From the NCBI RefSeq assembly GCF_001677475.2, contig NZ_CP012498.1: a stretch of DNA of 64,000 bases; one strand, written 5' to 3'. Source of the stretch: Escherichia coli. GTDB taxonomy: Bacteria > Pseudomonadota > Gammaproteobacteria > Enterobacterales > Enterobacteriaceae. Position 1 is the stretch's first letter; every line of letters begins with the position of its first letter. Shown here one piece after another: positions 51,049-64,000 of this stretch. Made by a program: the position numbers.

Positions 51049-54000
51049 TTATCCTTGTCCGCCGCTGACACCACGTATACCAGCCGCTGCGGGCCACACG
51101 GAGCACGCGGCACATAGCCTTGATGCTGAACTCAGCCTGATGTTTTTCAATAAAGACATACTTCATTTCAGGCGCTTCGCGAAGCATGCCGCGGCCTTTT
51201 GGAGGATAGCCAGTTCCTCTGCCTGCTCCGCCAGTTGCCGCTTCAGGCGGGCATTTTCAGCGGCCAGTTCACTTTCACGCTCAGACGAGGTCATCTGTTG
51301 CTGCAGTTTGCTGCGCCACGCATAGAGCTGAGATTCATACAGGCTGAGTTCACGGGCTGCGGCAGCAACACCGATGCGTTCAGCAAGTTTCAGGGCTTCA
51401 CTGCGAAATTCAGGCGAATGCTGTTTACGGGGTTTTTTACTGGTTGAGACTGTTTTTGTCATGTGAGTCACCTCTGACTGAGAGTTTACTCACTTAGCCG
51501 CGTGTCCACTATTGCTGGATAAGATCAATGCAGTGGAGTAGAAAGGGCGCGCATTATTTGTTACAGACCAGAACTGCAGTCCTGAATAACGAACTACAGG
51601 ACAAATTCGCCAGTTGGTATCCCGGTTGTACGATAGACGCTCAGAGTAGGGGGACGTTATCCGCGATGGCAGCATAGCTACTGCCCCAGGATTTTTCATG
51701 CTCTCCTATAACAATCGACGATTGCTGGAAAGGCTGGGCCATGTCTCTCCAGCAGAAGCAGAAAAAGCTTATTTCGATTCCATAGGAAGATGATCTAGCT
51801 GCCTGAGTAGTTTACAGACAAAACACTTTCAAGGAAACACTGTGCGGTTCAGATAACTTCCCTTTTTAGCTAATGATGCACAAGCTGTTGTTGTGTGCAT
51901 TATTAGCTAAAAAAGATGTTGGTTTTTCATTAGACTATACCATAATTTATTTATGGTTTTGTATGAATTTCTGCCGCATGTATGCGAAGCGATATGAGGA
52001 AATAAGTTCATGGAGGAAGCGGCAAATAGCTATATAGTTGAGAGAACAATAGAAGTTGCGCTTAAATTCCTATGTTTATGAGAAGTGTGGTCTGAGCATT
52101 TTTGAGTGCAGTTTTATTTTCTTAGACTTGTTAAAAAGCGGTTCATTGTATGTACATCGTGGATAATAGTGGAGGCCTGAGAGCCGGAAGCTATCGCAAT
52201 ATCCATAACGACGTCTTTATTAGTCTGCACCATGATTCAAGGCTGCCCTGCCTGAAAGGAAGGGTAGATCGCCACCTTGGATTTTGGTTATCCGGGCTAA
52301 CTGGATGTCGGGCGCTACCATGGTGATAATGTTCATGTAGATGTATGGGCTGATTATCGCGGAGGCTTTAAAACTGATTGGTAAACTGCTTGGTATAATC
52401 GAGGGTTTTATTTTTTGTGCGTAGTGGTGTGGCCTTTGTGGTTACTTATAAGTAACTAAGAGAAGGATTGTATATGCAGAATAAAAGAAAATATAAGAGC
52501 TATTGTTCATATTTTTCCGTCGAGCCGTAGTCACGATATGCTATATTAATCTTTTTAATAGTGCCACTGGCGTAGTGGGTAAAATTGACTCCTTTATATT
52601 AGGGATAATATGATAATATACTTTTTCCCTTTTAAAATGGAAGAAAATGATGTTTTTCTTGAGAATGAAGTTAAGCACCAAAACATGAAAAATAAACAAT
52701 GTTTCGGTGTGAGAGCTTCCGATAAGACACCTCTGTGCTTTTTAAAACCAGGAGATGTTTTATATATCTTTGCTCATGGAAATACATCTGTTATAGGGAC
52801 AGGATCAGCGAGTGGGCCAACATTGAGTCCTGGGACGTTAGCAACTCAATTAATACACCGACGTTTACCAAAAAGTTTTAAAGATATAAGGATTTTATCT
52901 TGCAATTCTGGCATACATTCAAAAACTCCCGCTTTCGCACTACGTCTAAAAGAGATTATGTATGGATATGGTTATCACGATTTAGTAGTTACGGGATACT
53001 TGGGTGAAGTAGATGTGTCGAGAGATTGGAGATTAAAAAATCATAACGAAGATATGGATTTTTACTCTTCAAAGAAAAAAGGAATAATACCTATAAGTAG
53101 TATATTAACTGAGTCTCAAAAGGCATTTTGTGGATCAGATTTAAAGTTTTCTCTTTCTGATTTTAAAGTGCGATATTAAAATAACACCTTGATATTGCAA
53201 GGCTGTGAATTTTTTAGTTTTTTGAGCACTTTAGTAAAGTGCATTCGATGCAGTTTAACAATCAGTGTTTTGGTCGGTTTATATAAGCCTCCCGAAGTGA
53301 GAAAAGGTGGTTTCCGTTATCTGGCTGATGGTGTCCTGTTGAGTCTGCAATAATGCCCGTAGTCAGATATTCTCATGAATAAGTGAGATATCTCCCGGCT
53401 TTTACAAGGTGGTGTATACAGATTTCAGAATATACTGTTCTTTTAGATTAATAATTTCATCTTCAAAAGATGAGTAAACAAAGCAATTAAAGTTATTTAA
53501 TATGTGATGATTTTAGTTAACATAATTAACATTTAAATAAATTCAATAAGAAAATATACGTCGCATATTGTATTTATAACGTTAGTTGTTGTTAATACAC
53601 TAATAATAATTATCTGTTTTTATTAGATATTTTCATGTTTGAAAATATTAGTGCGGTAGCTATGGTATTTAGTTGATATGTATATGACACACTAACACTA
53701 CTACAGGATAGATAAAGTGAGTAATACACAACACAAACTTGATAAGTCTCGCCCCCCGAGAGTACAGATAACCTACGATGTTGAAACTGGAGATGCCGAG
53801 ACAGCGAAAGAGTTACCCCTTGTTATTGGGGTTTTGGGAGAGTACTCTTCATCAGATAAACCATTGAGAGAACGAAAGTTTATTAGTATAGACAAAGACA
53901 ATTTTGATGAAGTTATGACATCAATGAGTCCGAAGGCTCATTTTATGGTCAATAGTGTTATCCCGGGTAATGAAGGGAAACTGGATGTCGAGCTTACGTT

Positions 54001-63000: not shown

Positions 63001-64000
63001 ATAAAGAGATGTCAAGGGAGAAAGCTATAGAACAACTAAAAAAAATATCTGTTTTTTTCAGGCAATCTGAACCCACTAGTCCTGTACCTTATCTTCTTGA
63101 AAGAGCAGTACGTTGGTCAACAATGACTATGTCAGAATGGCTTGAGGAACTACTTAAAGATAATGAATCTATGGAACAAATAAATCGTATTTTAAAAGGG
63201 TAAAAAATTAATGACTAGTAAGTATCTGTTACTAATAGCTATAGCATTACCTTTTTTTATTAGTTCTTGCTCTGATAAGTATTCTGAGCAGGAAAAAATG
63301 CAGGTTATTAATAATGTCGATACTCCATTTGGTGCAGGCTTGATTACTTTTCAGATATCACCCGATACACAATTAAACTCACTTAACGATATATCCAATA
63401 GCTGTACTTTATTATTCTTACAGGCCTCAGGTAAAAAAACATTACAGGACTTAATGAATAATCCAGTGTTAATTAAACAGTTTTTCAGTGGGGCTGGTAA
63501 AATTGATGGTATTCTTAAAGTTGATAAATATGTGGCAATGCCAGCTCAGGAGACAACACTACATATAGATCGGAGTGAAGGTGCTAAATATGTAGGTATT
63601 ATTGCCGGATACTATCCCTTTCCTGGAAAACAACATATGGTGCTTTTAGATATCCCTGTTAATGTTATTGAGGATGGGTGGTGGAACAAATCATTACATG
63701 CGTCACTATCTCCTCTTTTTAAAAAGATATCTATGGGTAAAGAAAGTATCAGTATAAAATAATTGTACAGGTATTACTGCATGCAAGAAGAAGAGCAACT
63801 TATTTATTGGTATTCAGGCCTTTATTTACAACCTCAGCATTTTCAGTCAATTGATTTGCATCATAGTTTCATGCTTGCCAGAAACAGGCAGTTATCACAA
63901 CCCTATTATCAGGGGTACTATGAATGTCATATAAATGATAATCTTCTGAAAGAAGATACAATCAGGATTGAAAAAATAAAGGCTGTGTTACCTTCTGGGT

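Follow-up and report, generated by a model that had tools for sequence, protein, structure and literature searches.

Probable T6SS-3 (aai/Sci-2) gene cluster in an AT-rich island of an IncFII F-type Escherichia coli plasmid

In enteroaggregative Escherichia coli (EAEC) 042, a type VI secretion system (T6SS) known as T6SS-3, aai or Sci-2 is encoded by aaiA to aaiP on the pheU island. AggR, a regulator encoded on a plasmid, activates the EAEC operon; aaiA-P suffices for the secretion of AaiC in K-12, and Sci-2 mediates contact-dependent killing of nonimmune E. coli (PMC6730261, PMC6863884). T6SS-3 genes have also been reported in 2023 on pEHEC of strain RM9088, including an IS110 element between aaiL and aaiN (PMC10562709). 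A 2022 plasmid survey counted 28 T6SS-bearing E. coli plasmids and gave the TssB-based subtype i4b to NZ_CP042296.1 and to the related plasmids of E. coli (PMC9113992 and its Table S1), and a wider survey of plasmid T6SSs is available (PMC13098142). In this study, we analyzed a 64,000-nucleotide stretch of E. coli contig NZ_CP012498.1 (assembly GCF_001677475.2), referred to here as the window, in which an earlier interpretation made from the DNA alone (the sequence-only reading) had recognized a T6SS gene cluster at 53717-64000.

Our analysis leads us to conclude that this region very probably represents the first 11 genes and the start of the 12th gene of E. coli T6SS-3 (aai/Sci-2, subtype i4b), carried in an AT-rich island flanked by insertion sequences (IS) on an IncFII F-type conjugative plasmid; the i4b label follows the published assignment of NZ_CP042296.1 (PMC9113992), which has a 99.7% identical cluster, and not a tree of our own. 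An open reading frame (ORF) scan revealed a tightly packed, same-strand run of genes (plus strand) that reaches the edge of the window, with intergenic spacings of -10 to +18 bases and no internal stop codons in the 11 complete genes. Minus-strand ORFs within the cluster were all 103 amino acids (aa) or shorter and overlapped the coding strand, and Rfam detected no RNA family within the T6SS region. The scan reproduced the gene order and coordinates proposed earlier, except for three start codons, for which the most likely positions are 58409 in tssG (310 aa), 61347 in the DUF6931 gene (153 aa), and 61824 in the PAAR gene (99 aa). The genes are as follows.

53717-54193, plus strand: tssB (aaiA), small subunit of the sheath; start codon GTG, TIGR03358 166 bits (cut-off 97), 90.5% aa identity to EAEC 042
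54196-55674, plus strand: tssC (aaiB), sheath large subunit; TIGR03355 673 bits (cut-off 272), 95.9% identity to 042
55684-56190, plus strand: aaiC/hcp2, predicted tube protein; Hcp fold by AlphaFold (AF2) and Foldseek, syntenic with the annotated aaiC of 042, 62% identity
56201-56623, plus strand: tssE (aaiD), gp25-like baseplate wedge; TIGR03357 E=2.2e-6, below the cut-off, 85.7% identity to 042
56616-58418, plus strand: tssF (aaiE); TIGR03359 440 bits (cut-off 260)
58409-59341, plus strand: tssG (aaiF); TIGR03347 158 bits (cut-off 143), start chosen by agreement with relatives
59354-61336, plus strand: vgrG (aaiG), spike, without a toxin extension; TIGR03361 354 bits (cut-off 186), 78% identity to 042
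61347-61808, plus strand: DUF6931 gene (aaiH); PF22011 E=1.4e-11, between vgrG and PAAR in 11 of the 11 lineages compared
61824-62123, plus strand: PAAR gene (aaiI), 99 aa; PF05488 E=4.4e-20, residues 24-91
62127-63203, plus strand: tssA (aaiJ); TIGR03363 228 bits (cut-off 161)
63211-63762, plus strand: tssJ (aaiK), outer-membrane lipoprotein; PF12790 E=4.7e-5, signal peptide and lipobox (...FISSC), 79% identity to 042
63781-64000, plus strand: 5' end of tssK (aaiL), truncated at the edge of the window; TIGR03353 E=6e-17 over 73 aa

The profile and Pfam matches for these components, together with the Hcp fold predicted for the aaiC-like ORF, confirm that this is a T6SS gene cluster: TssB, TssC, TssF, TssG, VgrG, and TssA passed their NCBIfam cut-offs, and PAAR was identified by Pfam. 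In VgrG, the TIGR03361 match spans residues 29 to 520 and a Francisella-type spike model spans residues 557 to 660; the protein therefore ends in a beta-helix spike, PAAR is a bare 99-aa domain, and the earlier statement that neither carries a toxin extension holds. The 73-aa N terminus of TssK is 100% identical to TssK of plasmid pOkiPb01676_1. The tssE counterparts of RefSeq relatives are named "lysozyme family protein," and literature searches yielded nothing informative on DUF6931.

The aaiC-like ORF was the sole cluster gene without a profile match, with no match in NCBIfam, Pfam, or PDB sequence searches. Its family is tiny, with 8 clusters when grouped at 90% identity and, at an E value of ≤0.001, 26 representatives among 1.84 billion. 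When the PDB was searched with an AlphaFold model based on these homologues (pLDDT 80), T6SS Hcp proteins made up nearly all of the top 50 matches, and Hcp crystal structures were matched with TM-scores of 0.65 to 0.73 and a probability of 1.0. Because of these matches, the ORF is predicted to be a divergent Hcp.

Comparison with EAEC 042 is central to the identification. Megablast against the 042 chromosome gave a colinear alignment with 100% query coverage and 85.8% identity. The order of the genes from tssB to tssJ is that of aaiA-L, and the lengths of the 11 complete genes are equal, with the DUF6931 gene differing by 2 residues. Protein identities range from 62 to 96%, with the lowest values for AaiC (62%), DUF6931 (74.5%), and VgrG (78%). 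EAEC 042 likewise has the DUF6931 gene between vgrG and the PAAR gene and the proximal leader block ahead of tssB, and its accessory region includes a VasL/ImpA_N gene and a gene of the ORF189 family; however, the ORF189-family gene follows tssH in 042, whereas it lies upstream of tssB in the window. Furthermore, the 042 copy resides in a chromosomal tRNA island and has a characterized AggR box and a distal promoter, whereas the window copy is on a plasmid and lacks both of these elements.

Much closer relatives are found on plasmids. In pEHEC of the crow Shiga toxin-producing E. coli strain RM9088 (NZ_CP042296.1), pRHB35-C09_2 (CP057155.1), and pOkiPb01676_1 (NZ_AP042481.1), the cluster has 99.7 to 99.8% nucleotide identity to that of the window over 10.3 kb and 98.4 to 100% protein identity. 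These plasmids have IncF backbones and the same ORF189 and IS fragments from 49958 onward, but their backbone is arranged differently from that of the window to the left of this point. In all three, tssJ is followed by tssK, an IS110 remnant, tssL, tssM, and tssH (843 aa), and then by IS fragments and an accessory region; the 99.7% identical plasmids and other lineages as well encode full-length TssL and TssM. In the closest lineages the gap between tssK and tssL holds the IS110 pseudogene, a remnant of approximately 1.8 kb, and in a more distant, 94.6% identical lineage the remnant is itself interrupted by IS3 (L002:31435-32450 and L004:28937-31265 of the relatives in our contig numbering). 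The tra/rep region of the window is nearer (approximately 98%) to the 215- to 242-kb plasmids of this 94.6% lineage. The locus is real and intact and had been read correctly; however, it is already known, including a near-identical allele. The sequence-only reading had deferred any judgment of novelty to a database search, and the novelty that it implied did not survive database and literature searches, since the combination of T6SS and plasmid is already catalogued and described (PMC10562709, PMC9113992, PMC13098142).

The cluster appears to have been maintained by selection. Against four divergent lineages, at a synonymous divergence (dS) of approximately 0.5, the ratio of nonsynonymous to synonymous substitution (dN/dS) was 0.04 to 0.45 over all 11 genes: it was 0.04 to 0.09 for the sheath and PAAR genes (tssB, 0.05 to 0.09; tssC, 0.04 to 0.06) and 0.12 to 0.27 for most of the others, with a maximum of 0.45. 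These values show that all of the complete genes are under purifying selection, which supports the presence of a working machine. Alignment of the cluster from 11 sources (the window, nine other plasmids, and EAEC 042) showed that the 12-gene order is kept in all 11 lineages. In a neighbor-joining tree, a distance tree without correction for recombination that is indicative only, the chromosomal copy nested among the plasmid lineages and the deepest branch was a plasmid. The most divergent gene of the cluster was aaiC, a hypervariable hotspot in which the segment at 55775-56071 had a mean pairwise identity of 71% (minimum, 55%), compared to approximately 90% in tssC. Relative to the 94.6% lineage the cluster is mosaic, with dS values of ≤0.02 from the DUF6931 gene to tssJ, 0.10 to 0.38 from tssB to tssG, and 0.83 in aaiC; this pattern indicates that recombination within the operon has exchanged the tube-gene segment.

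Upstream of tssB, the only stretch common to EAEC 042 is a leader block of approximately 50 bp.

53625-53672, plus strand: leader block upstream of tssB; sigma-70-like TTGAAA-N16-TATGGT at 53639-53666, matching L003:19358-19405 of EAEC 042

This block is kept in 9 of the 11 lineages and may be a common core promoter or operator. The window lineage lacks approximately 100 bp of leader that is found in other lineages. The published rule for AggR sites (WWWWWWWTATC plus a -10 element at 21 to 23 bp), which recovers the known site of 042, returned no site, and hence no AggR-dependent promoter, when applied to the 600 bp that precede the window tssB. The part of 042 that holds the AggR box has no aligned counterpart in the window. 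Since the box is absent upstream of the plasmid tssB, regulation here must, to judge from the sequence, differ from that in EAEC. AggR dependence is a regulatory trait of the EAEC copy and does not define the T6SS-3 phylogroup.

The remainder of the window bears out the F-like conjugative backbone that had been proposed, and the IS debris reported to precede the cluster was likewise found.

4581-40248, plus strand: F-type transfer region, from the traJ leader/FinP to traX and finO; NCBIfam and Rfam matches, 97 to 98% identical to known IncF plasmids
43564-43652, minus strand: CopA antisense RNA (Rfam)
43725-44594, plus strand: IncFII repA; TIGR03474 incFII_RepA 586 bits
48265-51700, no strand assigned: truncated IS fragments (IS2/IS3 family, IS21 istA, and ISKra4) between repA and the island; NCBIfam matches to partial transposases

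TraB, TraC, TraN, TraH, TraG, TraD, TraI, TraX, FinO, and IncFII RepA are full length and above their NCBIfam cut-offs, and Rfam matches in the backbone comprised traJ_5, FinP, AS-traG, AS-traI, CopA, and sok. By gene content, the backbone qualifies as that of an F-type (MOBF/MPF_F, IncFII) conjugative plasmid. FinO is full length (186 aa), and transfer is therefore probably fertility inhibited rather than derepressed. Among the F-plasmid RNA elements, AS-pc02 antisense RNA, sok (of the hok/sok module), CopA, the traJ 5' untranslated region, and FinP were placed at 40431-40613 (minus), 42597-42757 (plus), 43564-43652 (minus), and 4581-4690. From 49958 onward, the IS field, with truncated IS2/IS3, IS21, and ISKra4 pieces at approximately 48.2 to 51.7 kb, is colinear at 99.1% with a field of annotated pseudogenes on pOkiPb01676_1. 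The GC content drops from near 51.8 kb; as had been asserted, the cluster is far more AT rich (approximately 35% GC; range, 0.34 to 0.39) than the backbone (approximately 50%; approximately 0.45 to 0.61 in the tra/rep region).

Occurrences of T6SS-3 are divided about evenly between chromosomes and plasmids. The cluster was present in 99 of 5,426 complete E. coli genomes, at 51 chromosomal and 49 plasmid places, and in PLSDB it was found on 50 plasmids, 36 of which were typed as conjugative. A search with 2.4 kb of upstream sequence, which was dominated by IS fragments, returned 18 genomes that share the whole segment upstream of the cluster. The same 12-gene cluster, at 87.9% identity, is carried by pSNE1-2010K-2159 of Salmonella Newport (NZ_CP025255.1; L013), a MOBP/MPF_I conjugative plasmid, from which we conclude that the T6SS-3 island moves between plasmid backbones and genera.

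By homology, the products of the cluster would form a contractile injection machine, in which an envelope complex of TssJ, with TssL and TssM, would hold a TssEFGK baseplate around a VgrG-PAAR spike that has DUF6931 as a conserved partner. An AaiC/Hcp2 tube inside the TssBC sheath would be primed by TssA, and ClpV would recycle the sheath. We infer that this plasmid carries tssL, tssM, and tssH beyond the window and that the machine would deliver cargo encoded elsewhere on the island; by analogy, its contractile mechanism would be that of the EAEC orthologue. Expression would be AggR free and would probably be driven by the promoter-like leader block described above. H-NS typically silences DNA that is very AT rich, and because the cluster is AT rich, we postulate that this expression is subject to silencing by nucleoid proteins.

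The cargo itself is less clear. Between the IS field and the leader block lies a further ORF.

52610-53179, plus strand: ORF189, an AT-rich 189-aa ORF with invariant His56 and Cys98; tentative C80-like protease or T6SS-3-linked cargo

ORF189 is under purifying selection. Its best fold matches were Peptidase C80 toxin protease domains; however, these matches were marginal and found no significant support at the sequence level, and its designation as a C80-like cysteine protease is tentative. A member of the family was present in all six T6SS-3 islands with enough flanking sequence, including that of EAEC 042. A role as cargo exclusive to T6SS-3, which was first inferred from five contigs, was rejected by a tblastn census in which 126 plasmids carried the family compared to 49 with tssC. 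Because the family also occurs on many T6SS-free IncF plasmids, on one of which the gene adjoins parM, its link with T6SS-3 is suggestive but not specific. Past tssH, the accessory region of relatives contains a gene for a member of the AvrPphF/HopF/EspJ ADP-ribosyltransferase family (PF09143, E=1.2e-8; NCBIfam EspJ, E=8.5e-8), which is present in three plasmid lineages and absent from EAEC 042 and some plasmid lineages; a VasL/ImpA_N protein is also encoded after tssH, and in pCEC15 a further product of the accessory region resembles the C-terminal domain found in the type III effectors EspK/GogB (E=1e-24). The HopF/EspJ-like and EspK/GogB-like genes (L002:42977-43573, L004:42948-43544, L005:27234-27830, and L005:25975-26565) lie, in these relatives, beyond the right edge of the window. 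We found no paper linking HopF/EspJ-like or EspK/GogB-like proteins to T6SS-3, and these accessory-region proteins are offered as candidate cargo, as leads only.

Several observations weigh against an intact, functional T6SS-3. TssE and TssJ fall below curated NCBIfam cut-offs, the window ends within tssK so that tssL, tssM, and tssH lie beyond its edge, there is no AggR box, the IS110 remnant of the nearest relatives could be polar on tssL-tssM-tssH, and no effector-immunity pair can be recognized in the window, as the sequence-only reading had also stated. It could be envisioned from some of these data that the cluster is silent or decaying, a passenger captured among IS elements, no longer a single operon, and without a present function on the plasmid. 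The IS debris on its left, the IS110 remnant between tssK and tssL and the additional IS fragments after tssH in the closest relatives, the missing AggR box, and the silencing that such AT-rich DNA generally undergoes would all fit this explanation. However, the 11 complete genes are intact and have the lengths found in EAEC 042, every gene has a dN/dS far below 1 in comparisons of lineages at a dS of approximately 0.5, the 12-gene order is kept throughout the 11 lineages, and the IS110 remnant is intergenic, with TssK, TssL, TssM, and TssH full length in the relatives. We consider a decaying passenger to be unlikely and favor an intact T6SS-3.

What such a T6SS-3 is aimed at is a separate question. 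It might act mainly on eukaryotic host cells by delivering type III effector-like domains, an explanation that draws on the HopF/EspJ-like protein after tssH in three plasmid lineages, the EspK/GogB-like C-terminal domain in pCEC15, the C80 toxin protease fold matches of ORF189, and the membership of the EAEC orthologue in the AggR virulence regulon. Yet antibacterial killing by EAEC Sci-2 has been published, the C80 assignment is weak, the ADP-ribosyltransferase-like and EspK-like genes are outside the window and are not found in EAEC 042 or in some plasmid lineages, and the products of all of these genes are putative cargo; we therefore regard a mainly host-directed system as doubtful, although antibacterial and anti-host roles are not mutually exclusive. 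Alternatively, along the lines of the plasmid competition and recipient choice suggested by the sequence-only reading, the T6SS could serve the plasmid, for example by killing plasmid-free neighbors, choosing recipients, or excluding competing plasmids. Its location beside an apparently intact F transfer system, the conjugative typing of 36 of the 50 cluster-bearing plasmids, and its occurrence on the Salmonella MOBP/MPF_I plasmid, and hence its movement between backbones, are consistent with such a role, but no sequence feature links the two machines, no shared regulator or immunity gene was identified near the transfer genes, chromosomes carry the system just as often (51 compared to 49 places), and no such role of T6SS-3 appears in the literature reviewed. 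A plasmid-serving T6SS is accordingly highly improbable. Finally, it can be proposed that conjugative plasmids, and not the EAEC chromosome, are the main reservoir of T6SS-3 and of its host-directed cargo (HopF/EspJ-like and EspK/GogB-like proteins and the ORF189 family), with the AaiC tube being swapped by recombination to match the cargo. This joint proposal seems to us very unlikely; were it true, F plasmids would be spreading, without any need for AggR, a host-targeting injection machine in the E. coli of livestock and wildlife.

As a discovery the locus has little value, since the system, its carriage on plasmids, and a near-identical allele are already in databases and in print. It is nevertheless a useful pointer, for T6SS-3 is the least studied T6SS of E. 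coli and, among complete genomes, about half of its copies reside on plasmids, most of them conjugative, with cattle, pigs, sheep, rodents, wild birds, and food as their sources. The AggR-independent promoter region, the recombining aaiC segment, and the short list of candidate cargo provide handles for its study. The questions that remain concern the biology of T6SS-3, namely, its effectors, its regulation outside EAEC, and its interplay with conjugation, rather than the existence or nature of this locus.

Among the other known systems, EAEC Sci-1 (T6SS-1) has the same 13 core functions and adjoins aai on the same island of EAEC 042. This Fur-regulated, antibacterial T6SS differs in its gene order, in its regulation, in having a canonical Hcp that is recognized by profiles, and in its known effector, Tle1; Sci-1 is not the system of the window. 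The T6SSs of Cronobacter pESA3, Campylobacter jejuni pCJDM202-type megaplasmids, Vibrio crassostreae pGV1512, and Rhizobium megaplasmids are likewise complete systems on plasmids, some of which are conjugative (PMC9113992, PMC13098142), but they belong to different subtypes (e.g., i1 in Campylobacter) and have different gene orders and hosts. Complete plasmid T6SSs occur mostly on nontransmissible megaplasmids and prefer MPF_T (PMC13098142); therefore, T6SS-3 on an MPF_F carrier of 100 to 240 kb represents the less common case.

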